DNA of 64,000 bases from Acidimicrobiia bacterium (GTDB lineage Bacteria > Actinomycetota > Acidimicrobiia > Spongiisociales > ZC4RG35): NCBI GenBank assembly GCA_050742015.1, contig JBOGEV010000012.1, forward strand, positions 326-64,325. The letters run 5' to 3'. Made by a program: the position numbers and the translations under genes. Positions within the stretch are counted from its first letter, which is position 1, and the number at the start of each line of letters is the position of its first letter. The notes under the pieces were generated by a model. It worked only from the letters and a program-made list of their open reading frames with translations. It had not been told where the DNA came from and searched no databases. Positions 7,319-49,089 of this stretch are shown piece after piece.

Positions 7319-8179
7319 TCAGCCTTCGATGACCGTCAGCGAAGATCCCTGACCCACCGAGATCACCCAACCCGATCCGGCAACAGGGCTCTCGAACCCG
7401 TCGCTGCTTGCGAGCCATCCGGCCGGCACTGCGGCCTGACCGACCACCCTCGCCGGGACACCGGCGGGGACTGTGACTTGGAAATCTCCCGAGACGGTCA
7501 CGACCACGCTGTCCGTGACCGAGCCCAAGATGGTCTCCCCTCCTCCGTCGAGTTGAAGGGAGGCGAGACGGAGACGGCTCAGGTCGGCTTCGACATCACC
7601 TCCGAGCGACAGACTCCAGACCGGGGCCTCATCGAGGTCGAGCTGCCAGCCGGCAAATGTGTACAGGCCCGGATCCTCGGAAGGGCTGATGGCCACAGCG
7701 ATGTTGGCCCCCTGGATCTGCTCCACGGCAACCGGCGGCCCGATGTCCCCTCCCCGGCGCACCGGCTCCACCGAGTACAAGAACCCAGATTGGCCGGATC
7801 CGACCTCGAGCCTGCCTTCGATGCTGGCGGACAGGGCGCCCGTCGCGACTGAGCCGGCCTGGGGGCCATTGAGGTTGGTCGACGCCGACGGCATGGCGGG
7901 CCAGCCGAGGACGTGGCCGGTGACGAACAGTCCGAGGACGATCAGCCACAGGATCGGGACCAAGGCCATCACCCGCACCCTCCCCCAGCGACGGCCCCGA
8001 GCCAGGAGGGTGAGGCCCAAGAGCAGGAGCCAAACCGGCCACCAGGCGATGAAGTCGTGGAAGACCGAGCGGCTGAGGTAACCGAGAAGGGCAGCGGCAA
8101 CGATGAGAGCCAACCCCAGCACGGGCAGGGTCCACGCCCTGGGCACCCCGCGGCGAGCGCCACCGGAGCGATGGGTCAT
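7319..8179 (-). CDS. Hypothetical membrane protein (4 N-terminal TM helices plus beta-rich C-terminal domain, LiaF/DUF-like)
   Basis: 286-aa ORF whose start overlaps the upstream gene's stop (ATGA at 8176..8179). N-terminal hydrophobic helices are followed by a repetitive beta-strand-like C-terminal half. No family recognised with certainty. Confidence 0.6.
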   Translation of the reverse strand: MTHRSGGARRGVPRAWTLPVLGLALIVAAALLGYLSRSVFHDFIAWWPVWLLLLGLTLLARGRRWGRVRVMALVPILWLIVLGLFVTGHVLGWPAMPSASTNLNGPQAGSVATGALSASIEGRLEVGSGQSGFLYSVEPVRRGGDIGPPVAVEQIQGANIAVAISPSEDPGLYTFAGWQLDLDEAPVWSLSLGGDVEADLSRLRLASLQLDGGGETILGSVTDSVVVTVSGDFQVTVPAGVPARVVGQAAVPAGWLASSDGFESPVAGSGWVISVGQGSSLTVIEG

Positions 8180-8742
8180 TCGGTGTAGCCGGTGCCCAGC
8201 ACCAGCACCACGTCCGCGCCCGGCTCCAACTCGGGATCCGGTATCGGCTCGACCACGGCGCCGGGCAGGAACTCGAGCAGGGCGTTGGCCTCGGGGGCGA
8301 AGCCCTCGCGGTACCAGACCCGGGACGGGTCCTGAGCCGGTTCCAGATCGCCTGCCTGCTGGGTCTGGTAACCGGCATCGGCGAGTTGCTGGGTCTTCCG
8401 GCCGGCTGCTCCGTCCAGCCCGATCGAGTTGAGGACGATGACACGCACTTCGCCGGGGGGGCGAACCGGGATCGTGGTCGCGGCCAGGGTGGTCGGGGTG
8501 GTGGTGGTCTCCGCCGCGGTCGTCGCTGTCGAGGACGCCGTCGAGGACGCCGCCGACGTCGTGGTGCTGCTCGATGACGATGACGGTGCCGTGGTGTCGC
8601 CGGCTACCGGGTCGGGATCGCCGGCGAACAGGTAGAGGAGCAGGAAGACCGCGGCGCCGACCAGGAGGATGCCGACCACCATCATGACCAGGTCCCGGTA
8701 GAACGACCCTTCGGTGCCTGAGGCATGCCTTCCCCGGTTCAC
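8176..8742 (-). CDS. LytR C-terminal (LytR_C) domain membrane protein
   Basis: Single TM helix (MMVVGILLVGAAVFLLLY), a Ser/Thr/Ala-rich linker, then a LytR_C-like end (VRVIVLNSIGLDGAAGRKTQQLADAGY ... DVVLVLGTGY). Start set to the GTG at 8742, which overlaps the DUF3263 stop (GTGA). Confidence 0.75.
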   Translation of the reverse strand: MNRGRHASGTEGSFYRDLVMMVVGILLVGAAVFLLLYLFAGDPDPVAGDTTAPSSSSSSTTTSAASSTASSTATTAAETTTTPTTLAATTIPVRPPGEVRVIVLNSIGLDGAAGRKTQQLADAGYQTQQAGDLEPAQDPSRVWYREGFAPEANALLEFLPGAVVEPIPDPELEPGADVVLVLGTGYTE

Positions 8743-8972
8743 GATGCGGCCACCTCGTCGGTCGTTTCGGGGTCGATCATTGCCCGGATCCGGGCCACGG
8801 TGAGAGGATCGAAACGGGCCGACTCGGGCAGGGCAACGATCCTGATCAGGTGCTCGTAGTAGTCGGCGGCGGGCAGGCCGAGGCTCAGCTCGATTGCCTG
8901 GTCTTTCGGACCCGGCTCCAGCCACCAGCCTCTCTCGAACTCGAGGACGGCTCGATCCCCATCGCTGAGCAT
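8739..8972 (-). CDS. DUF3263 domain protein
   Basis: 77 aa beginning MLSDGDRAVLEFERGWW... The DUF3263 plus LytR_C pairing is typical of actinobacteria (recollection). Confidence 0.7.
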   Translation of the reverse strand: MLSDGDRAVLEFERGWWLEPGPKDQAIELSLGLPAADYYEHLIRIVALPESARFDPLTVARIRAMIDPETTDEVAAS

Positions 8973-9106
8973 GAGGATGAGGGTATTTCTCGACCTGGAT
9001 TTAGTTGAGGATTTGATCGTGGGCTCGTCACGCGGAGGGAGTAGAGGTGTTACGCCTACCGAGCCAACGGTCGGCGTTTTGCCACCACCTCAACGGGCCG
9101 GGCCGG

Positions 9107-9883
9107 TTAGACGGGCTTGTGGGCTCGGAACGGATAGCCCCAGGTTCCGAATGACCGTGCGTTCCTCTCGCCGTTTGCGCCGGCATAGGTGTCGACTCGA
9201 GGGCCGAACTCGAGCTCGAGGAACCCGACCGCGGTGATGACTGCCTCCCACCCTGCACACGGCAGGGCACCGGCAATTCAGCCGGTCCAGAGGTCGATGT
9301 TCCTTCTCGCCTCCTCCGAGACCGGTTTGTCGACGCAAATGTCGGCGATTTGGAAGCGGCCGCCCGGCTTGAGGGCACGCTCGATCTGTCGGTAGGCGCC
9401 GTATTTGTCGACCGTGAGGTTGAGCACGCCGTTGGAGATGACGAGATCCACCGACTCGGCGTCAACGGGCAGTCGTTCCGCCCGTCCTTCACGAAACTCG
9501 ACATTGGCGAGACCCATCCGATCCGCGCTATGCCGGGCGGCTCCGAGCATTTCGCGTGTCATGTCCACGCCGACCACCCGGCCTTCCGGACCGACGGCCT
9601 TGGCGGCGATCAGGACGTCCACACCGGCTCCCGATCCTACGTCGAGGACGGTTTCGCCCCGTCTCGGCAATCCGAAGTGGAAAGGGTTGGCGACGCCGGC
9701 GAAGGATGCGATCACATCGTCAGGCAAGTCGTCGATGATTGAGTTGTCGTAGCCGACCTGCCGGGCCGCCTCCCGGCCGGTGTGGAAGTGGAACTCGTGC
9801 TCGGGGTTGGTGGCTACCTCGGCGTAATGCTTCTGGATCTCGACCCGTAGTTGGTCCTCGTCGACCGGGATGATGTCAGTCAT
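9107..9883 (-). CDS. ArsM/AS3MT-like SAM-dependent methyltransferase with in-frame UGA (candidate selenocysteine) at 9280..9278
   Basis: SAM motif VLDVGSGAGVD. ATGA overlap with the upstream MFS gene. The frame stays open 56 codons past the TGA and reads DLWTG-[UGA]-IAGALPCAGWEAVITAVGF..., matching the ArsM ..W.xC(I/L)xGAL..AGF.. region. TAA at 9109..9107. If the UGA is a true stop, the product is 9278..9883 (201 aa). Confidence 0.6.
9249..9269 (-). promoter_or_regulatory. SECIS-like stem-loop downstream of the in-frame UGA
   Basis: The mRNA UGCCCUGC-CGUGU-GCAGGGUG forms 6 Watson-Crick plus 2 G-U pairs. The loop spans +20..+24 from the U of UGA, with G/U at +23/+24. Confidence 0.5.
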
Positions 9884-11142
9884 TGCGCACCTTTCGTGAT
9901 GATCTGGGGAAGTGTCTCTCGCATCCGCACGGCGACGTCGAGCCCGCTGACGGCGGTGATGGCGGCCACTGCGACGATGGCGGTTGGAATGGTGTAGAGG
10001 TCGGCTAGTACTCCGGCCAAGACCGCCCCTACCGCGAAGCCGAGGTCCCGCCACAGCCTGTAGACACCTATGGCGGCGCCACGCCAGTAGGGGTGGGCGA
10101 TGTCGCTGACTGCGGCAATGAGAGTGGGGTAGGCCATGGCAGTGCCGGCTCCGAACAGGATGCTTCCCGCCACCCAATACTCGACTTGGCCACCAAGAGC
10201 GATGATGAGAAGCCCGGCTGCTTGGTTGAACTGGCCGAACACGATGAGCAGCTTCCTTCCGATCCGGTCCGACAGTGCGCCGGTGAGGAGCTGGCCGAAT
10301 CCCCAGACAGCTGGGGCAATGGCTACGAGGCCTCCAACTGTGGCGAGGTTGAGCCCGGCGGTGGCGAAGAGGACGGGGAGCAGGCCCCAGGCCATTCCCT
10401 CGTTGAGGTTGTTCACCAAACCGGCCCGACTCGCCGAGGAAAGGCTCCGGTCCCCCCAGCTGGTCAGGGCGAACACCTGCTTGGAGTCGAGGCCACCGTC
10501 GAGGTGCCCGATATGAAGGGCGGCTTCTCGGGTGACGTGGTCACTGGTCTCTCGGACAAAGAGCGCGCTCAGCCCGAGGCCCAGGGCGGCGACCGCAAGG
10601 CCCAGGAAGAATGGGGCGGGTCGGAGTCCCGCGCTCTCGGCGATGGCTCCGGTCGCCCAGGCGACGGCAGCGAGTGCGGCGTAGCCGGCTGCCTCGTTGA
10701 ACCCCATCGCGGTTCCGCGGAGCCGGGGGCCGACCAGGTCGATCTTCATGATCACCGTCACCGACCACGTCAAGCCCTGACTGACCCCCAAGAGAATGTT
10801 GGCTACCAGCACCCATTCCCAGGTCGGAGCCCACATGAGAAGAAGGGGCACAGGGAGCCCGATCAGCCATCCTGCGACAAGGACCGGTTTTCTCCCGTAC
10901 CGGTCCGCCAGATAGCCGGCGAAGAAGTTGACCGCGGCCTTGGAGAGCCCGAACACGACTATGAACGAGACCATTCCGGCATATGCGGCAATCCCGAACT
11001 CGGCCTCCGCGAGCAGGGGGACCACCGTCCGCTCCTGGCCGACCATCCCGCCGACCAGGGCGTTGACCGCCACCAGCAGGAGGAATTGAGGGAGATTCTC
11101 CCGCAGCCCGAGCCGGACCGGTCGTCCGAGCTGATCGGTCAT
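9880..11142 (-). CDS. MFS transporter
   Basis: 420 aa and about 12 TM helices, with MFS loop motifs (GYLADRYGRKPVLVAG; LSDRIGRKLLIV). ATGA overlaps at both ends. The N-terminal 158 codons of the ORF-track version overlap the upstream gene and were trimmed. Confidence 0.85.
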   Translation of the reverse strand: MTDQLGRPVRLGLRENLPQFLLLVAVNALVGGMVGQERTVVPLLAEAEFGIAAYAGMVSFIVVFGLSKAAVNFFAGYLADRYGRKPVLVAGWLIGLPVPLLLMWAPTWEWVLVANILLGVSQGLTWSVTVIMKIDLVGPRLRGTAMGFNEAAGYAALAAVAWATGAIAESAGLRPAPFFLGLAVAALGLGLSALFVRETSDHVTREAALHIGHLDGGLDSKQVFALTSWGDRSLSSASRAGLVNNLNEGMAWGLLPVLFATAGLNLATVGGLVAIAPAVWGFGQLLTGALSDRIGRKLLIVFGQFNQAAGLLIIALGGQVEYWVAGSILFGAGTAMAYPTLIAAVSDIAHPYWRGAAIGVYRLWRDLGFAVGAVLAGVLADLYTIPTAIVAVAAITAVSGLDVAVRMRETLPQIITKGAQ

Positions 11143-12482
11143 GAACCCCCGCTCTTGGTCGAGAGCTGGTCGTGCCCACCCTCGAACACGACCACGTCCT
11201 GACGACCTGCTTTGGCGAGGAGGCTGGCTGCGGTCATGGCTCGCTCCCCATGACCGCAGTGGAGTAGCAACTGACCGCGAGGCAGTTCGGCGGTCGAATC
11301 GACAACCGAGCCGAGCTCGACGTGGACGGCGTCGGGATGGTGTCCCGTCTCGTACTCCGATTCCTGCCTGACATCGAGGATCGACCGCTGCCCGACCCCT
11401 GCCGGATTCCTGGCGACCTCGATCTGCGACACCGGCCGCCCTGCATCGATCCAAGCGGGCAGCCCGCCGGCGAGCAGCCCCGTCAAGTTCTCGAACCCGA
11501 CGGTGAGGGCCGACCAGGTCAGGTCGTGTTCGTCGACCGTCCTGTCGGTGACGAACACCAATGGTGTATCCAAGGGCAAGAGCCAACCGAGCCATGTGGA
11601 GAACGACTCTCGCCACGGGTTGGATATGGATTCAGGCACATGTCCGGCAGAAAAGGCGTCGATGGCGCGCACGTCGATCACCTCGGCGCCATCGGCCATT
11701 GCGGCCTCCACCTCCGAAACCGAAAGCCGCGGCAGGGGTGGAGAGGTGCCGAAGACCCGGGGTCCTCGCCTGTTCAGTTGCCGCAGCTCGAGGAAGTAGG
11801 GGGGATAGCTGCCGTAACCGGCGAGCAGACGCCGAACGAAGGTGTCTTCGTCGGCCTCGCCGGCCATCAACGGGTTGGAGACCTTCTCGGCCCCGATGGT
11901 CGTGGTCCGTTCCGTGTCGCCTCCCACTGAGCAGAACGACCCGGCGCCGTGGGTCGGATAGACGACCAGCTCGTCGGGGAGGGTGAACAATCGCTGCCGG
12001 ATCGACCGGTAGGCCGCCCGCGCCAGCGGCTCGGTCTGGTCGGGGGTGAGAAGGTCGGTGCGAGCCACGCCGCCCGCCATCAGCGTCCCACCCGAGAACA
12101 ACCCGATCTGATGCGAGTCGTCGGAGAGGAGATACGAGAGGTGCTCGGGAGTGTGCCCCGGTGTGGCGATCACCTCCAAGGTCAACCCTCCCAGATCGAC
12201 CTTCTCGCCATCGCTCAACGGCCGATGTGGGAACGCCGCTTGCGAGGCCGCTGGAGCCAGGAGAGTCGCTCCCTCGGCGATCAGCTCACGGCTCCCGGAG
12301 ACGAAGTCGGCATGGAGGTGGGTCTCGACGACGAATCTGGGGCGAAGACGGGCCCGCGCCAGCCGGCGCAGGTATGGACGCGGGTCCCGCTCGGGGTCCA
12401 CCACCATCGCTCCACCGTCGCCCAAATCCACGACGTAGGAGCTGTTGCCCAGACCTTCGTCGACGATCGGCGTCACCACCAT
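11139..12482 (-). CDS. MBL-fold metallo-hydrolase fused to two rhodanese-like domains (CstB/Blh-like persulfide dioxygenase-sulfurtransferase candidate)
   Basis: N-terminal metallo-beta-lactamase motif ETHLHADFVSG and TPGHTPEH. The C-terminal rhodanese domains end in the active-site loop LLHCGHGERA. Confidence 0.8.
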   Translation of the reverse strand: MVVTPIVDEGLGNSSYVVDLGDGGAMVVDPERDPRPYLRRLARARLRPRFVVETHLHADFVSGSRELIAEGATLLAPAASQAAFPHRPLSDGEKVDLGGLTLEVIATPGHTPEHLSYLLSDDSHQIGLFSGGTLMAGGVARTDLLTPDQTEPLARAAYRSIRQRLFTLPDELVVYPTHGAGSFCSVGGDTERTTTIGAEKVSNPLMAGEADEDTFVRRLLAGYGSYPPYFLELRQLNRRGPRVFGTSPPLPRLSVSEVEAAMADGAEVIDVRAIDAFSAGHVPESISNPWRESFSTWLGWLLPLDTPLVFVTDRTVDEHDLTWSALTVGFENLTGLLAGGLPAWIDAGRPVSQIEVARNPAGVGQRSILDVRQESEYETGHHPDAVHVELGSVVDSTAELPRGQLLLHCGHGERAMTAASLLAKAGRQDVVVFEGGHDQLSTKSGGS

Positions 12483-12502
12483 GTCGTACCCTTCTCAAGC
12501 CT

Positions 12503-12554
12503 TCACTTGAATAATGGCCCGACTTCCCGCTATAGTCAAGCGATCATTTGAATA
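12503..12554. promoter_or_regulatory. Candidate operator boxes and back-to-back divergent promoters of the ArsR-rhodanese / MBL-rhodanese intergenic region
   Basis: TCACTTGAATA (12503..12513) and TCATTTGAATA (12544..12554) are direct repeats. An imperfect inverted copy TATAGTCAAGCGA lies at 12531..12543. Plus-strand TTGAAT-N18-TATAGT (12507..12536). Minus-strand TTGACT (12539..12534)-N17-CATTAT. The region is AT-rich relative to its surroundings. Confidence 0.45.
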
Positions 12555-12574
12555 GCTGATCGGGGTAAGAAAAG

Positions 12575-13276
12575 ATGCTGGAAACGGAGCCATCGACGGA
12601 TCCCAAGAGGAAGGCGAAGGACGCCATGTTCGAGGGGTTCGCCTCGATCGCGGCCGCGCTGGCCTCGGGTCGCCGCGTCGAGATAGTCGAGGTACTCGCC
12701 CAAGGGGAGCGAACGGTCGAAGATGTCGCCCAGGCAATAGGCCAGTCGGTGGCCAACACGTCTCACCATCTGCGGACACTGGCTCGGGCCGGCCTCGTTT
12801 CCACCCGCCGCCAGGGAAATCACATCTACTACCGCCTGGCATCGGAGTCGGTTGCCGACGTCTGGCTCGCCATCCGAAACCTGGCAGCCGACCGTCTGGA
12901 AGCAATGGACCAACTCGTCCATGCCTATCTCGGCGATCGAACCGAGCTGGAGGTGATCGGGGTCGAGGACTTGAGGGAGCGCCTGCGGACCGGTGAGGTG
13001 GTGTTGATCGATGTCCGACCCGAGCCCGAGTACCAGGCCGGCCATCTGCCTGGCGCCGTGTCGGTGCCGCCCGATGACTTCTCGCGGCTCGACGCCCTAC
13101 TCGAGATCCTCCCTCCCGACCGCGACATCGTGGCCTATTGCCGGGGCCCGTACTGCCTCTACGCCGACAGCGCAATCCGATACCTGGCCGGCCGAGGCCG
13201 GACCGCCGCTCGGCTCGAACAGGGAATTCCCGAGTGGCGACGCGGAGGCGGGCTCGTGGAGACCCAGTCCACTTAA
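12575..13276 (+). CDS. ArsR/SmtB-family transcriptional regulator fused to a rhodanese domain
   Basis: Winged-HTH ArsR core (RVEIVEVLAQGERTVEDVAQAIGQSVANTSHHLRTLARAGLV). C-terminal rhodanese domain with active-site CRGPYC. Confidence 0.85.
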   Translation: MLETEPSTDPKRKAKDAMFEGFASIAAALASGRRVEIVEVLAQGERTVEDVAQAIGQSVANTSHHLRTLARAGLVSTRRQGNHIYYRLASESVADVWLAIRNLAADRLEAMDQLVHAYLGDRTELEVIGVEDLRERLRTGEVVLIDVRPEPEYQAGHLPGAVSVPPDDFSRLDALLEILPPDRDIVAYCRGPYCLYADSAIRYLAGRGRTAARLEQGIPEWRRGGGLVETQST

Positions 13277-13959
13277 GGACGGTGAGGCACGATGGACACC
13301 GAATTCGGCGTGGCGCTGGACCCTGTGCAGGAACGGACCTGTACCAGCAAGGTCAAGACCACGCCCGGCGCGGGGTGACCAGGAACAATATGTGATGGGA
13401 GTCGTCGCCGAGTCGTGATGTCCTCAACCACCAGGCCGGAGATCTTTGCAGCCAAGCTCCTGGTCGAAGCGGGGGCGGGCGCCGGCGAACACGACACGCC
13501 TCAGTCTTGCTCCCAAGCGAAGTCGGCGGCACGGTTCCCCGGCCTCGACGTGTCGAGGAAGCCGGTCAGGTTCAGAGTTGTCTTGGCGGGCGATCTGTAC
13601 CAGACGATGATGCTCGGCCTGGTGGATCCGATCGTCATGGATGGATCGGACGACGCCAGGGTCAATGTACGGATTCACAATGTGTCTCTCAGGGTTGACG
13701 TTTCTTTGCTGCCACATGACGCGGCATGACATTTCTCGCACAGGTCGGTTCCCATGCAGAAGAGGTTTGGTAGACGACCCGGGGAGACGAAGGGTGGTCA
13801 AATGACGCCGACTCCCCGCTCGCCTGCCAAGACGTCCTTGGCGTGGCGATGGCACAGACCGCTCACCTCCACCCCACGTCAATGCTGAGCCACCGTCTGA
13901 AGATGAGCACACCCCTCGCCACGGGGTAACGACCATCTGGGCGGACCAGTCCAACACAT

Positions 13960-14409
13960 ATGCGATTTCGCCTCCCCGAATGGGACGTCCGGATGCCGGA
14001 GTCGCTCGTCTCCTATTGGGCTGCGTGGAACGAGATGGAAATAGGCCTAGTGACGCAGCACCTCGCCCGAGCAGTCACAGAGGACGTTGAGTGGACCGAT
14101 CCTCGTGACGCGTTCGTCGGGATTGCTGAGTTGGAAGCCGCGATCCGAAGTCTTCGAACGAGCAAGCCGGGCTATCGCTTCGTCATCGCGTCAGAAGTGG
14201 ATCATCATCACGACCGATTCAGGTACCGATGGGACATGATCAGTCGCGGCCGAACTTTGATGGAGGGCCTCGACATCGTCACGATCGACCCTTCGACGGG
14301 TTTGATCTGCCGCGTCGACGGGTTCTTCGGACAGGTCACTCCGATCAAAGGAGAAGCGACGGGTGTGCCCGCTGAGTTACTCGGAGAATCCGAGAGTCAC
14401 AACGGCTAG
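13960..14409 (+). CDS. NTF2/SnoaL-like fold protein
   Basis: 149 aa, alpha+beta barrel-like (YWAAWNEM...; RFRYRWDMISRGRTLMEGLDIVTID). Family call is approximate. Confidence 0.55.
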   Translation: MRFRLPEWDVRMPESLVSYWAAWNEMEIGLVTQHLARAVTEDVEWTDPRDAFVGIAELEAAIRSLRTSKPGYRFVIASEVDHHHDRFRYRWDMISRGRTLMEGLDIVTIDPSTGLICRVDGFFGQVTPIKGEATGVPAELLGESESHNG

Positions 14410-14448
14410 CGCCTTACCCCGCAGTCGCTCAAACCGCTGCATGTGTCG

Positions 14449-14521
14449 AGCCGGGTGCCGGAATCGAACCGACGACCTGCTGTTTACAAGACAGCTGCTC
14501 TACCAACTGAGCTAACCCGGC
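14449..14521 (-). tRNA. tRNA-Thr (anticodon UGU)
   Basis: Cloverleaf folded by hand from GCCGGGTTAGCTCAGTTGGTAGAGCAGCTGTCTTGTAAACAGCAGGTCGTCGGTTCGATTCCGGCACCCGGCT. 7-bp acceptor stem, anticodon loop CT-TGT-AA, T-loop TTCGATT. CCA is not encoded. Confidence 0.95.
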
Positions 14522-14630
14522 GATAGCTCGAGATTACCGGGCGGCCTCGATTCCCCGAGGTGGAGGGCCGCGGATCCGACCTGGAACGACCGGAGTCATC
14601 TGCAATGATCCAGGGCAACGATCCGAGGAC

Positions 14631-26074: not shown

Positions 26075-27226
26075 TCAACCGCCCGCGGCCATGTCGGCGG
26101 CGACGATGCTGCCGTCGACCAGACCGGCGCGGATCGTCTCGATCTGGGCGGCCAGCTCGGGATCAACGGCTTCGTTGATCGGACCGATTCCGACACCATC
26201 CTCGGCGATGGTGTACTCCCGCGTCCCACCTTCGAACGTGCCCTGGGCGACAGCCTCGATAGCCGAGGAAGCGGCCACATCCAGACCCTTGAGCACCGAG
26301 GTGAGGGTCACGTCGCTGTACTCGGGGAGCGTCTGGAACCAGTCGGCGTCCACACCGATGACCCACACATTGCCCAGCTCCTGAGCCAGTGCTGCGGAGC
26401 CGACACCAACTGGCCCTGCCACCGGCAGGATGACGTCGGCACCCTCGTCCACGAAGGACTGGGTCAGGTTCCGGCCGTTGTCGGCGTTCTCAAAGTCACC
26501 GGTGAAAGATCCGGTCTGCTCCTCGGGGTTCCAGCCCAAGGTCTGAACATCGGTTCCATTCTCCTGGTTGTAGTACCGGACTCCATAGACGAATCCGTCC
26601 ATGAAGCAGGTCACACCGCAGGGGATCTGGATGCCGCCATAAGTGGCGACCACGCCCGTTTGACTCACGCCTGCTGCCAGGTACCCGGCGAGGAAGGCGG
26701 CGTCGGTGGTGCCGAACACCGCTCCCTGGAGGTTGTCGAGCTCGGATGTGGCATCGATGATCTGGAACAGTTGATCAGGGTTGGCCTCGGCCGCAGCCGT
26801 GATGTCGGCGGCAAGCAGGAATCCTGCCGCGATGATCAGGTCACATCCCTCGTCGACAAACGACTGGATGTTGGGTGCGTAGTCCGTAGGCGCCTGTGAC
26901 TCCAGGAACTTCGAGTCCTCGGTGGCGGTCCCCGCCTCGATCGCGTTCAAGACGCCCTGCCAGGCGGTCTGGTTGAACGACTTGTCGTCGATCCCGCCGG
27001 TGTCGGACACCTGACAGGCGAGGATTGCCTCTCCAGCAGGCTCCTCACCGCCGGCTGTGGTGGTGGGCTCTTCCTCGGCGGCCGTCGTCGTTGGCTCTTC
27101 GGCGGCGGTCGTGGTTGGCTCCTCGCCCGCCGTTGTCGTGGTGTCTCCACCCTCGCCGTCGCCGCAGGCCGCAAGGACCAACGCGAAGACGGAGATGAGG
27201 GCGAGATACCGCAGATAGCGTTTCAC
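26075..27226 (-). CDS. BMP-family ABC transporter substrate-binding lipoprotein (PnrA/Med-like)
   Basis: Lipobox LVLAAC after a signal peptide, and a BMP-like body (DKSFNQTAWQG; GVDADW). GTG start at 27226 lies 8 nt after GGAGGA. Confidence 0.85.
   Translation of the reverse strand: MKRYLRYLALISVFALVLAACGDGEGGDTTTTAGEEPTTTAAEEPTTTAAEEEPTTTAGGEEPAGEAILACQVSDTGGIDDKSFNQTAWQGVLNAIEAGTATEDSKFLESQAPTDYAPNIQSFVDEGCDLIIAAGFLLAADITAAAEANPDQLFQIIDATSELDNLQGAVFGTTDAAFLAGYLAAGVSQTGVVATYGGIQIPCGVTCFMDGFVYGVRYYNQENGTDVQTLGWNPEEQTGSFTGDFENADNGRNLTQSFVDEGADVILPVAGPVGVGSAALAQELGNVWVIGVDADWFQTLPEYSDVTLTSVLKGLDVAASSAIEAVAQGTFEGGTREYTIAEDGVGIGPINEAVDPELAAQIETIRAGLVDGSIVAADMAAGG
27038..27142 (-). repeat. In-frame tandem coding repeat (EEPTTTAA-like units) in the lipoprotein linker
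   Basis: [11 protein letters not shown] reads TTTTAGEEPTTTAAEEPTTTAAEEEPTTTAGGEEP, directly after the lipobox cysteine. Confidence 0.8.
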
Positions 27227-29279: not shown

Positions 29280-29319
29280 GGTTCTGCGTTCCACATATGG
29301 AACTAACAGTCTCAGGTTC
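29272..29319. repeat. Structured repeat, left copy
   Basis: GAACCTGAG-gttctgc-GTTCC-acatat-GGAAC-taacagt-CTCAGGTTC. The outer 9-bp arms and inner 5-bp arms are self-complementary. Confidence 0.9.
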
Positions 29320-29342
29320 CCCGGGCAGACACCCCTGGAATC

Positions 29343-30281
29343 TTGCGCCGCAAGCTGACATGCTGGACGTCGGTGGGAGAGAAGACATTGCGCCTCATCG
29401 GGCACGCTCGTGCCAACGGTGGAGTCATCACGACAGCTGAGGCCCAAGCGCTCGGCTTCAGCCGGACCACACTGTCGAGATGGGCCCAGACGGGTGCCTT
29501 GACCCGAGTCCAACGAGGTGTCTTCGCCCTGCCCGGGCTCAACTTGAGCGAGGAGGAGGTGCTCGAGGATGCTTGCCGACGCCTGATTGCGGTTGTCTCC
29601 CACCATTCCGCTGCGAGGCTGCACCTCTTCGACGGCGTGCCGCGGGCGGCTCCCTGCGTGACGGTGCCGCATCGGCTCACCCACAGATTCCCAGGCGTCT
29701 ACGTCCATCAATCAACGGACATCACCGACGACGAGCTCGTCTCGATTCGGGGTCTTCCGGTCACCAGCCCGGAGCGCACCATCATCGACCTGGCCGCAAT
29801 CGTCGGAGACGGCCGAATGGATTGGATTCTCGATCGCGCCCTGTCTTCAGGAACAGTCGACCTTGCGAGGTTGTCGGACCTCTTCTCCACGCTGGGCCGC
29901 CGTGGCAAGCCCGGGACCACGAGGGTCAGACGGATGCTCGAGAAGCGAGACGCCTCGTACACGCCCCCGGATACCGTCCTCGAGCAGCGACTCCTCGGGA
30001 TCATCGAGGGAGACGGCCTGCCCAAGCCGGAGCTGCAGTTTCGACCATCGTGGCTGGTGCCGACCCAGGGCCGGGTCGACTTCGCGTATCCGGATCAGCA
30101 GTTGGTGGTCGAAGGGGACAGTCGCAAATGGCATCTGCTGATGGAGTCGTTCCAGATCGATCGGCACCGTGACAATCAAGCGCAGTTGGCCGGATGGCGC
30201 ATCCTTCGCTTCACTTGGAAGGACATCGTCGAGGAGCCTCTCATGGTGGCGAACTCGATCCGTACTGGGTTGGGTCTGTAG
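29343..30281 (+). CDS. DUF559 (Vsr/endonuclease-like) domain protein with N-terminal AbiEi-type HTH
   Basis: N-terminus GGVITTAEAQALGFSRTTLSRWAQTGALTRVQRGVFALPG. C-terminus RVDFAYPDQQLVVEGDSRKWH ... LAGWRILRFTW. Start is uncertain (TTG 29343, GTG 29373). Confidence 0.8.
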   Translation: MRRKLTCWTSVGEKTLRLIGHARANGGVITTAEAQALGFSRTTLSRWAQTGALTRVQRGVFALPGLNLSEEEVLEDACRRLIAVVSHHSAARLHLFDGVPRAAPCVTVPHRLTHRFPGVYVHQSTDITDDELVSIRGLPVTSPERTIIDLAAIVGDGRMDWILDRALSSGTVDLARLSDLFSTLGRRGKPGTTRVRRMLEKRDASYTPPDTVLEQRLLGIIEGDGLPKPELQFRPSWLVPTQGRVDFAYPDQQLVVEGDSRKWHLLMESFQIDRHRDNQAQLAGWRILRFTWKDIVEEPLMVANSIRTGLGL

Positions 30282-48514: not shown

Positions 48515-49089
48515 GGTCGCTCCGCGCCTTCAGGTACCAGGCCTCGTTTCATTGCGTACTCCCACAACGATTTCTGCATCGCCTTTCTTCCCCGATGGAG
48601 CCGGGACATGACTGTGCCGATCGGAATGTCCAGGATCTCTGCGATTTCCTTGTATGAGAATCCTTCGAGGTCGGCGAGGAGGACGGGGAGCCTAAAGTTC
48701 TCGGGAAGGTCCTCAACCGCCTCCTTGATGTCGGACTCGACCAAGCCTTCGAGGACCAGGTCCTCGGTGGTGCGGGCGGCCTCGGCCGACTCCTCGGACC
48801 CGATGTTTCGATAAAGGTAGAGGTCTTCGACGGAGCCGAGATCGACCTCGGAGGGACGACGGGAGTCCTTGCGGTACTTGTTGATGTAGGTGTTGGTGAG
48901 GATCCGGTAGAGCCAGGCCTTGAGGTTGGTCCCCTCCTCGAAGGTGTGATACGCCCGGTACGCCTTGAGAAATGTCTCCTGGACCAGGTCCTCGGCATCG
49001 GACGGGTTCCGGGTCATCCGCATGGCCGCGCTGTACAGCTGGCGGGTGAACTGCATCGCGTCGCGTTCGAAGTTGGCCTGGTCAGCCAT
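48511..49089 (-). CDS. sigH: ECF sigma factor (SigH/SigR-type)
   Basis: Region 2 ([14 protein letters not shown]) and region 4 ([25 protein letters not shown]). Paired with the ZAS anti-sigma factor. Confidence 0.9.
   Translation of the reverse strand: MADQANFERDAMQFTRQLYSAAMRMTRNPSDAEDLVQETFLKAYRAYHTFEEGTNLKAWLYRILTNTYINKYRKDSRRPSEVDLGSVEDLYLYRNIGSEESAEAARTTEDLVLEGLVESDIKEAVEDLPENFRLPVLLADLEGFSYKEIAEILDIPIGTVMSRLHRGRKAMQKSLWEYAMKRGLVPEGAERP

Follow-up and report, generated by a model that had tools for sequence, protein, structure and literature searches.

A candidate reactive-sulfur regulon from Acidimicrobiia that joins an ArsR-rhodanese regulator, a CstB-like protein, an MFS transporter and an ArsM-fold methyltransferase selenoprotein

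We analyzed a cluster of four genes in a 64,000-nucleotide stretch of contig JBOGEV010000012.1 from an Acidimicrobiia bacterium (assembly GCA_050742015.1; the whole stretch is called the window below), in which an ArsR/SmtB-family regulator carrying its own rhodanese domain is encoded divergently from a metallo-β-lactamase (MBL)-rhodanese protein, a major facilitator superfamily (MFS) transporter and an ArsM-like methyltransferase. We read the cluster, with a probability of about one half, as a regulon that is controlled by a repressor and directed at reactive (sulfane) sulfur, functionally akin to the cst and BigR/Blh operons but made of different parts. The evidence comprises a palindromic operator found upstream of most metagenomic genes for such regulators, the repeated association of the regulator with MBL proteins of the persulfide-dioxygenase (PDO) family, and a methyltransferase without the arsenic-binding cysteines of ArsM, for which reason reactive sulfur (or selenium) is most likely what is sensed and disposed of. 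This methyltransferase is of a distinct subfamily, here called SNG-type, and its gene contains an in-frame TGA that, judged from comparative sequence evidence, is a real selenocysteine (Sec) codon.

Direct reading and the table of open reading frames (ORFs) confirmed the four genes at the positions given in Table 1, with the regulator on the plus strand and the other three genes chained on the minus strand. A preliminary description of this DNA had joined the three minus-strand genes by ATGA start/stop overlaps, both of which can be read in the sequence, and had recognized a divergent ArsR/SmtB regulator with a rhodanese domain, for which Pfam returns HTH_5 and Rhodanese and in which the CRGPYC loop is present. 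The domains of the cluster proteins are backed by both Pfam and NCBIfam. Close homologues come from Acidimicrobiia metagenome-assembled genomes (MAGs), and a 91%-identical relative (L088; L numbers denote the loci compared) has the same four genes in identical order. Other lineages hold the same families together in differing orders, namely MFS<MBL< >ArsR>MTase in L097-L100 and L110, ArsR>MTase>MBL>MFS in L102, MTase>ArsR>MBL>MFS in L157, ArsR>(MBL fragment)>MFS>MTase in L021, and a methyltransferase gene (MTase) convergent with MBL>MFS in L090. Because L088 keeps the order and the other lineages keep the families together in different orders, the arrangement is beyond chance. The concern, raised in the preliminary description along with a call for a neighbourhood search, that the four genes might not co-occur elsewhere is thus dispelled, as the four families are found together in related and distant genomes.

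To describe the neighbourhood of the regulator, we surveyed 80 metagenome loci anchored on it and counted neighbours within 6 kb over 85 loci. The MBL gene was present in 56, the MFS gene in 50 and the methyltransferase gene in 27 of these 85 loci, and no other partner was recurrent; DsrE-like sulfur carriers were found near the regulator in five. Among the 35 regulators flanked on each side by 1.5 kb or more, 27 had the MBL gene, 25 the MFS gene, eight the methyltransferase gene and six all four. The methyltransferases beside a regulator were all SNG-type, in either a Sec or a Cys form, and 7 of 27 distinct SNG-type contexts contained at least one cluster partner (ArsR-rhodanese, MBL or MFS), as compared with none of 58 canonical ArsM contexts (Fisher p = 1.8e-4). 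The conserved core is the regulator, the MBL protein of the PDO family and the MFS transporter, and the methyltransferase is a specific but optional fourth member. Its membership, as put forward in the preliminary description, holds here but is not fixed, since it adjoins only 8 of the 35 well-flanked regulators.

Two side observations concern these neighbourhoods. Besides the four genes, L097-L100 have another methyltransferase gene (Methyltransf_11), unrelated to the first, and encode a small, Cys-rich, DsrE-looking protein that has no Pfam match (for example, L099 712-1230 and 2398-2844); the true DsrE-family genes are in five other regulator loci.

The 92-bp region between the divergent genes contains two copies of TCAAG-N6-(C/T)TTGA (Table 1), and a relative has the perfect palindrome TATTCAAGTGATCACTTGAATA. 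When we searched for the exact motif TCAA-N8-TTGA, it was found within -200 to +40 of the start of 65 of the 80 metagenomic ArsR-rhodanese genes, where about 0.2 would be expected by chance, and 129 matches were counted across all loci (1.87 Mb) against 17.6 expected. The same intergenic region contains two divergent sigma-70-like promoter matches, as compared with 0.4 expected in shuffled sequences. Each palindrome overlaps one promoter-like site at its -35 element and the other at its start region, a placement that, as far as these predicted promoters go, is the usual layout for a repressor controlling both directions. Methyltransferase genes that are transcribed separately have an upstream palindrome of their own, at -88 in L090, -53 in L097-L100 and -77 in L157, and copies are present upstream of the MFS gene in L093. 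No operator was found, even with one mismatch allowed, upstream of the stand-alone methyltransferase genes (L001, L005, L009, L012, L013, L091 and others), and these genes are therefore not visibly in the regulon. Two more exact matches in the window, at 26163-26178 and 48713-48728, are in or near other genes far from the cluster and are probably chance matches.

The DNA-binding domain of the regulator has a plain ArsR/SmtB fold (HTH_5, E=5e-12), with no cysteine in residues 1-188 and no alpha-5 metal site. The regulator passes the NCBIfam model HTH_metalloreg (NF033788) with 80 bits (cut-off 55) and does not reach the BigR model (38 bits, cut-off 155). Its only cysteines are the two in the rhodanese loop, within the pattern Y-C-R-G-x-x-C that is invariant in 86 of 86 regulator homologues, and its rhodanese domain resembles the UxxxxU rhodanese of the selenoprotein TsoB (NF045694, E=3.5e-11) and a 'rhodanese-related (seleno)protein' model. 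Of the likeness to BigR drawn in the preliminary description, the ArsR-type family, the divergent arrangement and a conserved operator thus stand, and the BigR-type cysteines do not, the rhodanese loop having the only cysteines of the protein. The start of the gene is ambiguous: the longest ORF begins at 12575, while the public gene call begins at M18 (12626, giving 216 aa), which has the better AAGGA ribosome-binding site, and some homologues align from residue 7. The best match of the helix-turn-helix part in the PDB is 2kko/3gw2 (E=5e-18, residues 14-109), which we take to be a fragment of the Mycobacterium regulator Rv0324/Mb0332; full-length Rv0324 presumably also has a C-terminal rhodanese domain. 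Rv0324 itself is known only from network studies on hypoxia and bedaquiline tolerance (PMC4916473). The existence of ArsR-rhodanese fusions is noted in PMC3817168, which cites Bordo and Bork 2002.

The MBL-rhodanese protein, which consists of a PDO-like MBL domain, a Cys-less rhodanese homology domain (RHD) and a catalytic rhodanese, matches along its full length both 3tp9 (E=6e-73) and the structure of S. aureus CstB, 3r2u (E=4e-46; residues 30-461 of 3r2u on residues 6-438). Its PDB matches rank the PDOs 4ysb, 5ve3, 4chl and 2gcu above glyoxalase II. The recognizable motifs are HxHxDF (residues 55-60), GHT (H110), LFSGG (residues 128-132), HGAGSFC and LHCGHGERA, and the two cysteines of the protein, C184 (HGAGSFC) and C409 (rhodanese loop CGHGER), align with the cysteine of the CstB motif HGAGSPCGK and with that of the C-terminal rhodanese of CstB; we presume that both are functional in CstB. 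The His ligands of the MBL domain are present (H55/H57 and H110), and Gly132 replaces the motif-4 aspartate (LFSGD to LFSGG), a glycine that is kept in 13 of 13 three-domain orthologues of 33-87% identity. The mononuclear iron site of ETHE1 consists of two His and the motif-4 Asp (H79/H135/D154). The protein thus has a CstB-like architecture and a different metal site, in which a three-His site (H55, H57, H110) possibly remains. The likening to Blh and CstB in the preliminary description is borne out by the full-length CstB match and by the ranking of PDOs above glyoxalase II, but not by the metal site, as the aspartate of CstB and ETHE1 is gone. In other lineages, MBL proteins that accompany the regulator as stand-alone or Rhod-MBL forms retain TGD and HxHxDH, and the MBL partners in other regulator loci match CstB-like proteins and PDOs first. 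The Rhod-MBL fusion, with an N-terminal rhodanese (367 aa, loop CNSGYT), is present in many loci (L143 5543-6646; L137, L138, L144-L147, L150-L153); as its domain order reverses the MBL-RHD-Rhod order of the window protein, rhodanese and MBL have been joined more than once.

The MFS transporter is the best-conserved partner, 72-74% identical where the regulator is 59-67% identical. It passes the cut-off of no specific NCBIfam family, and its NCBIfam matches include no arsenical transporter.

The methyltransferase has an ArsM fold, of the class I S-adenosylmethionine (SAM) methyltransferase type with an ArsM-type substrate domain, but, as judged from its sequence, is not a canonical ArsM. Its best NCBIfam matches are ArsM-type selenoprotein models, and its score against the arsenite methyltransferase model NF008823 (210 bits) is under the cut-off of 263. 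The closest solved structures by sequence are ArsM (5evj, E=3e-25; 4fr0), and the best fold matches to a model of the Cys-form homologue P0108 (mean predicted confidence, pLDDT, 85) are ArsM 4fr0, 6cx6 and 5evj, with template-modelling (TM) scores of 0.6-0.72. When aligned with CmArsM, Sec202 falls at the As(III) ligand Cys224, a position occupied by Sec or Cys in all SNG-type members. The position of Cys72 (GCGNP) is in FAG-V-ANP in the window protein and is Val, Thr or Ile across the subfamily; that of Cys174 (SNCV), likewise an As(III) ligand, is in ISN-G-VLN, with the Gly invariant in SNG-type proteins; and the segment aligned with Cys44 has no cysteine and carries the invariant FHFHTGR. 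FAGVxNPF, SNGVxNL and W-T are also invariant. Of the 58 canonical ArsM loci, 57 have Cys at the Cys72 position, the exception being L028 with Ser; every locus compared has Cys at the Cys174 position, and all but L062 have Cys, or occasionally Sec, at the Cys224 position. Homologues below about 45% identity are all canonical ArsM. Since one reactive chalcogen residue is not enough to chelate As(III) in the manner of ArsM, we do not file the SNG-type proteins as ArsM, the name 'arsenite methyltransferase' given to homologues by public pipelines notwithstanding. What remains of the ArsM likeness claimed in the preliminary description is the fold and the Cys224 position, kept as Sec; three of the four ArsM cysteines are gone. 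A second cysteine as an essential partner of the Sec or Cys was considered and rejected, because C183, C209 and, in the Cys forms, C194 are each missing in some members; the dispensable extra cysteines are C183 and C209 in the clade of the window and, for most Cys forms, one located eight residues upstream.

Several loci outside the cluster type bear on the wider family. L037, L053 and L073 (Deltaproteobacteria/Desulfobacteraceae) and L068 (Falseniella ignava) keep the Cys72 and Cys174 equivalents and have TGA at the Cys224 position, with a downstream hairpin in a different register; they appear to be already known ArsM selenoproteins. The sulfur-linked neighbours of stand-alone methyltransferases are a single-domain rhodanese (L091), a TauE-family exporter (L019) and DoxX with a sulfite-oxidase-family gene (L005). 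In L019 (Alphaproteobacteria) the exporter gene, of the TauE/SafE family, follows the Sec-form methyltransferase at 11026-11970, and in L026 (Gemmatimonadales) a Sec-form methyltransferase immediately follows genes for a homocysteine S-methyltransferase-family protein and for a further small methyltransferase (8033-9889). L001 (GCA_022573225.1, JACZUI010000001.1) is labelled 'Acidobacteria bacterium', and its methyltransferase shares 82% identity with the Acidimicrobiia MAG proteins, which may reflect mislabelling, mis-binning or gene transfer.

The preliminary description had raised a possible Sec in the methyltransferase, and the comparative evidence supports it. The frame runs through DLWTG-TGA-IAGALPCAGW to a TAA at 9109-9107. 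Public gene calls end the protein at 201 aa, and a protein search returned about 105 clusters of 71-91% identity, essentially all 201-202 aa long and ending exactly at the TGA residue; the next tier of homologues, at about 55% identity, is full length (258-266 aa) with Cys at the TGA position (Cys forms are P0106-P0120 and, as loci, L097-L120). Among 92 loci examined at the DNA level, every homologue of at least 49% identity has TGA at the position, and these homologues span Acidimicrobiia, Gaiellaceae, Mycobacteriales, Acidobacteria, Alpha- and Deltaproteobacteria, Gemmatimonadota, Dehalococcoidia and Anaerolineales; the TGA is retained in each of the 38 SNG-type TGA loci examined, which reach down to 39% identity and belong to several phyla. 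The tblastn alignments continue past the TGA and, on contigs that are long enough, reach residues 250-258. Over the 56 codons beyond the TGA, substitutions are biased to the third position (for example, 3/3/22 and 7/4/24 at codon positions 1/2/3), with the same bias upstream and with 79-91% amino acid identity kept downstream.

A hairpin resembling a selenocysteine insertion sequence (SECIS) follows the TGA (Table 1). Across a set of 30 distinct sequences, 94% of the aligned cells are paired, the loop G is near-invariant, and three pairs have compensatory double changes (CCCUGC/GCAGGG, CUCUGC/GCAGAG, CUCUCC/GGAGAG, GCCUGC/GCAGGC and CGCUGC/GCAGCG). None of 500 shuffles reached the observed values, slid registers collapse, and RNAalifold independently predicts the same helix. 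In this register the TGA genes form 6.6 of 7 pairs, as compared with 3.1 of 7 in the Cys-codon genes, including the Cys forms of the same subfamily. Since the compensatory changes alter the peptide (ALPCAGW to ALLEAEL), the constraint acts on the RNA. Single-sequence folding of the region is unremarkable (z-score -0.74), so that the comparative analysis alone is informative, and Rfam found no known RNA family in the region. That the TGA is instead a true stop or a pseudogene lesion, leaving a truncated 201-aa methyltransferase, is what the gene callers imply in every database entry; given its retention across phyla, the third-position bias beyond it, the covarying hairpin confined to TGA genes and the alignment of Cys-form homologues through the C-terminus, we find this hardly credible. 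Sec use has been reported in Acidimicrobiia (Actinomarinales; bioRxiv 10.64898/2026.04.03.716425).

The arrangement suggests the following mechanism. The repressor would sit on the palindromes until its rhodanese loop takes sulfane sulfur from a persulfide or polysulfide, whereupon the Cys189 persulfide would close onto Cys194 as a di-, tri- or tetrasulfide and the DNA would be released. The CstB-like enzyme might process low-molecular-weight persulfides by way of C184 and the C-terminal rhodanese C409, with its dioxygenase chemistry perhaps altered or lost because the metal-ligand Asp is Gly, and the MFS protein could carry the anion produced, or else the stressor, through the membrane. In the methyltransferase, a chalcogen in the form of persulfide, sulfide or selenide would be bound to Sec202 in a Se-S or Se-Se adduct and then methylated from SAM, to give methanethiol-type or methylselenide-type products. 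The methylation of sulfane sulfur or selenium followed by export, as the preliminary description had it, is conjecture at this stage. More broadly, and only tentatively, ArsR-rhodanese proteins may be a widespread and undescribed class of sensor-repressors that load sulfane sulfur (or selenium) onto their own Cys-x4-Cys loop, and the SNG-type proteins may be new single-Sec/Cys chalcogen methyltransferases acting on enzyme-bound persulfide or perselenide.

Several points weigh against the regulon for reactive sulfur. Every substrate is inferred from sequence. The methyltransferase is missing from about three quarters of the regulator loci, and its close homologues in L001, L005, L009, L012 and L013 have neither partner genes nor operator; as many close homologues stand alone in this way, its role is not exclusive to the regulon. 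With the Asp of the 2-His-1-Asp site replaced by the conserved Gly132, the MBL-rhodanese protein may not be a dioxygenase. The family match of the MFS protein indicates neither the direction of transport nor the substrate, and since methanethiol and dimethylsulfide diffuse freely, methylation leaves the transporter unexplained. A Cys-x4-Cys rhodanese loop would also be suited to binding selenium or a soft metalloid. Finally, a search for the Sec machinery, which covered the window only, found no tRNA-Sec (ARAGORN, Rfam). ORFs of the size of SelD, SelA and SelB at 20.9-26.3 kb were rejected as a zinc-ribbon protein, an ABC permease and an ABC ATPase, the window genes at 17-36 kb being housekeeping genes, and an AIRS/AIRS_C gene considered as SelD beside the Sec-form homologue in L017 is PurM.

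One alternative, a cluster for the uptake and use of organic sulfur or selenium compounds or of another small molecule, with the MFS protein as importer, the MBL protein as hydrolase and a methyltransferase acting on a metabolite unrelated to inorganic sulfur, would account for the MFS gene being the most conserved partner, with a match that gives no direction, for the loss of the dioxygenase-type Asp from the altered metal site and for the very diverse contexts of stand-alone methyltransferase genes. We think it rather unlikely, as rhodanese recurs in the regulator, in the MBL partner (as a C- or N-terminal fusion) and as a separate gene (L091), which indicates sulfane-sulfur transfer chemistry, and in other loci the MBL partners have all the ligands and are PDO-like. 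The same recurrent PDO-family partner, for which selenium offers no obvious role, speaks against a selenium-specific unit, in which the loop would capture selenotrisulfide or perselenide formed from selenite and thiols, the Sec-methyltransferase would make methylselenides from enzyme-bound selenide and the transporter would handle selenium species. Rhodaneses can carry selenium, the rhodanese of the regulator resembles the TsoB UxxxxU rhodanese and the 'rhodanese-related (seleno)protein' model, the methyltransferase is itself a selenoprotein, and in L026 the gene of a Sec-form homologue comes immediately after one for a member of the homocysteine S-methyltransferase family, which includes selenocysteine methyltransferases. 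Yet the DsrE-like and TauE-family neighbours point to sulfur, no selD, selA or selB is nearby, the lone AIR-synthase-like neighbour being PurM, and many clusters use Cys-form methyltransferases, so that the unit does not depend on selenium use; a dedicated selenium function is on balance distinctly improbable.

Very unlikely, in our judgment, is an ars-type unit for arsenic or antimony, in which an ArsR repressor would control methylation by ArsM and efflux through an MFS pump like ArsK/ArsJ. The regulator is in the ArsR/SmtB family, the solved structures closest to the methyltransferase are ArsM/AS3MT, its homologues are named accordingly by public pipelines, and MFS-type arsenical exporters exist. 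However, the Cys72/Cys174 equivalents are replaced throughout the subfamily, with no Cys in the Cys44 region and a score under the NF008823 cut-off; the DNA-binding domain of the regulator has no cysteine; the MFS protein matches no arsenical transporter model in NCBIfam; no arsB, acr3, arsC or arsH is within 10 kb in the window or its relatives; and none of 58 canonical ArsM (C/C/C) genes is beside an ArsR-rhodanese gene.

Among known systems, the S. aureus cst operon (CstR; CstA, CstB, SQR, TauE), whose CstB fuses a persulfide dioxygenase to a rhodanese, shares with the window the full-length MBL-RHD-rhodanese protein, divergent repressor control and a membrane transporter. It differs in its repressor (CsoR-family CstR, where the window has ArsR-rhodanese) and its transporter (TauE instead of MFS), the window has neither SQR nor CstA, its MBL protein has Gly at the metal-ligand Asp, and the Sec-methyltransferase is an addition. 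With the BigR/Blh operon (Xylella, Agrobacterium) and the related ArsR repressors that sense sulfane sulfur (SqrR, YgaV, SoxR/sHdrR and HlyU), the cluster shares an ArsR-family repressor encoded divergently from an operon for membrane proteins and a PDO-family enzyme with rhodanese-type domains, and a palindromic operator between them in the common promoter region; those sensors use a Cys pair in the winged-helix dimer, whereas the window regulator has a whole rhodanese with a Cys-x4-Cys loop. The methyltransferase shares the fold and the UxxG position of Sec with ArsM/AS3MT and their selenoprotein forms (NF041536, NF041537, NF047649). It is short (258 aa) and lacks the AhpD, DUF2284 and UXPK extensions, and the genetic link of the SNG-type is with ArsR-rhodanese, not with ars genes. 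Selenoproteins of the ArsM type are known to have Sec at UxxG (PMC13188914, citing Fomenko et al. 2007).

The nearest functional analogy for the proposed role of the methyltransferase is with the Mdd enzymes (MddA, MddH, MddM1 and MddM2), small SAM-dependent methyltransferases with which bacteria, among them Actinomycetota, methylate and detoxify sulfide and methanethiol (PMC11445057, PMC12904073); transcription of mddM1 and mddM2 is induced by H2S. Sulfide detoxification by methylation is an established precedent in Actinomycetota (MddM1/MddM2, PMC12904073; MddH, PMC11445057). As described, they are UbiG/UbiE-type proteins of 204-210 aa or, for MddA, membrane proteins (PMC12904073), in contrast to the 258-aa ArsM fold of the window. 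No catalytic Cys or Sec is reported for them. The Tso selenoprotein neighbourhood, reportedly described by Haft and Tolstoy in 2025 (listed in PMC13188914), combines the ArsR-type TsoR with the rhodanese/DsbD selenoprotein TsoB. It shares with the window the association of an ArsR-type regulator with selenoproteins and with a rhodanese whose two chalcogen residues are four positions apart, UxxxxU there and CxxxxC here. The models match only weakly (TsoR 52 bits, cut-off 115; TsoB 42 bits, cut-off 805), and in Tso the regulator and the rhodanese are separate proteins with other partner genes. The Mycobacterium Rv0324/Mb0332-type regulator (2kko, 3gw2) is, as noted, the best PDB match of the DNA-binding domain. 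CstB-like enzymes, ArsR repressors of sulfur stress, Sec at UxxG in ArsM-like proteins and the existence of ArsR-rhodanese fusions are thus already known. In the open-access literature we found no account of the ArsR-rhodanese sensor class with its operator, of the SNG-type subfamily, of the Asp-to-Gly CstB variant or of their linkage, and no paper on methyltransferases in cst- or BigR-type operons.

If the regulon is as we propose, ArsR-rhodanese would be a fourth design of reactive-sulfur sensor beside the CstR, BigR/SqrR and FisR types, one that uses a complete sulfurtransferase domain as its input module, and the TCAA-N8-TTGA operator would make regulon prediction possible in hundreds of genomes. 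The annotations 'arsenite methyltransferase' include a large subfamily without arsenic-binding Cys that is genetically tied to sulfur enzymes, which affects the arsM counts used to estimate arsenic methylation potential. A methyltransferase with Sec as its sole reactive residue would be an unusual use of Sec and a tractable biochemical target. Should it methylate sulfide, persulfide or selenide, bacteria of soils and sediments would be able to form methanethiol, dimethylsulfide or methylselenides by a new route, and sediments, cold seeps and soils would have a new regulated source of volatile sulfur or selenium compounds. The homology of the window regulator to the Rv0324-type regulator, provided that 2kko is what we take it to be, suggests by analogy that H2S or persulfide may be the missing signal of this tuberculosis drug-tolerance regulator; the same logic would give a testable signal for Rv0324 of Mycobacterium tuberculosis.

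Table 1 Positions of the cluster genes and of the sites discussed, in window coordinates.
Feature	Position	Strand	Basis or remark
SNG-type ArsM-like SAM methyltransferase, selenoprotein, 258 aa including U202	9107..9883	-	Pfam Methyltransf_31 and others
SECIS-like hairpin, 7-bp stem (G-CCCUGC / GCAGGG-U), 5-nt loop CGUGU, 9 nt after UGA	9250..9268	-	Alignment
In-frame TGA, Sec202 by comparative evidence, motif WTG-U-IAG	9280..9278	-	Direct reading; aligned with ArsM Cys224
ATGA start/stop overlap, MFS stop and methyltransferase start	9883-9880	-	gcgcaATGActg, direct reading
MFS transporter, 420 aa	9880..11142	-	Pfam MFS_1, E=1e-40
ATGA start/stop overlap, MBL stop and MFS start	11142-11139	-	ggttcATGAccg, direct reading
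CstB-like protein: MBL (PDO-like), Cys-less RHD and catalytic rhodanese, 447 aa	11139..12482	-	Pfam Lactamase_B and two Rhodanese stretches
Gly132 codon, at the metal-binding Asp position of CstB (LFSGD), ETHE1 and glyoxalase II	12087..12089	-	Alignment and conservation table
Operator-like palindrome 1, TCAAGCCTTCACTTGA, extended form TCTCAAGCCTTCACTTGAATA	12495..12510	.	Overlaps the plus-strand -35; just downstream of the minus-strand -10
Sigma-70-like promoter match TTGAAT-18-TATAGT	12507-12536	+	Consensus match only
Sigma-70-like promoter match TTGACT-17-CATTAT	12539-12511	-	Consensus match only
Operator-like palindrome 2, TCAAGCGATCATTTGA	12536..12551	.	41 bp from palindrome 1, start to start
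ArsR/SmtB winged-helix repressor with C-terminal rhodanese, 233 aa	12575..13276	+	ORF; Pfam HTH_5 residues 33-76, Rhodanese residues 131-222
Codons of the rhodanese loop C189-R-G-P-Y-C194, the only two Cys of the regulator, proposed sensor site	13139..13156	+	Direct reading

Outside the cluster, the region between the regulator and the SnoaL gene varies (window 13277-14630 versus L088 2423-5641). In the window it contains small ORFs, with a weak match to SnoaL_2 at 13960-14409, as well as tRNA-Thr(TGT) at 14448-14521; L088 has instead a 1072-aa BTAD/TPR regulator, and the stretch downstream of the regulator may be an insertion hot spot beside a tRNA. An AbiEi-type antitoxin/transcriptional regulator is encoded at 29307-30281 of the window, amid housekeeping genes for RadA, an ABC transporter, ClpC, polyprenyl synthetase and LysRS.

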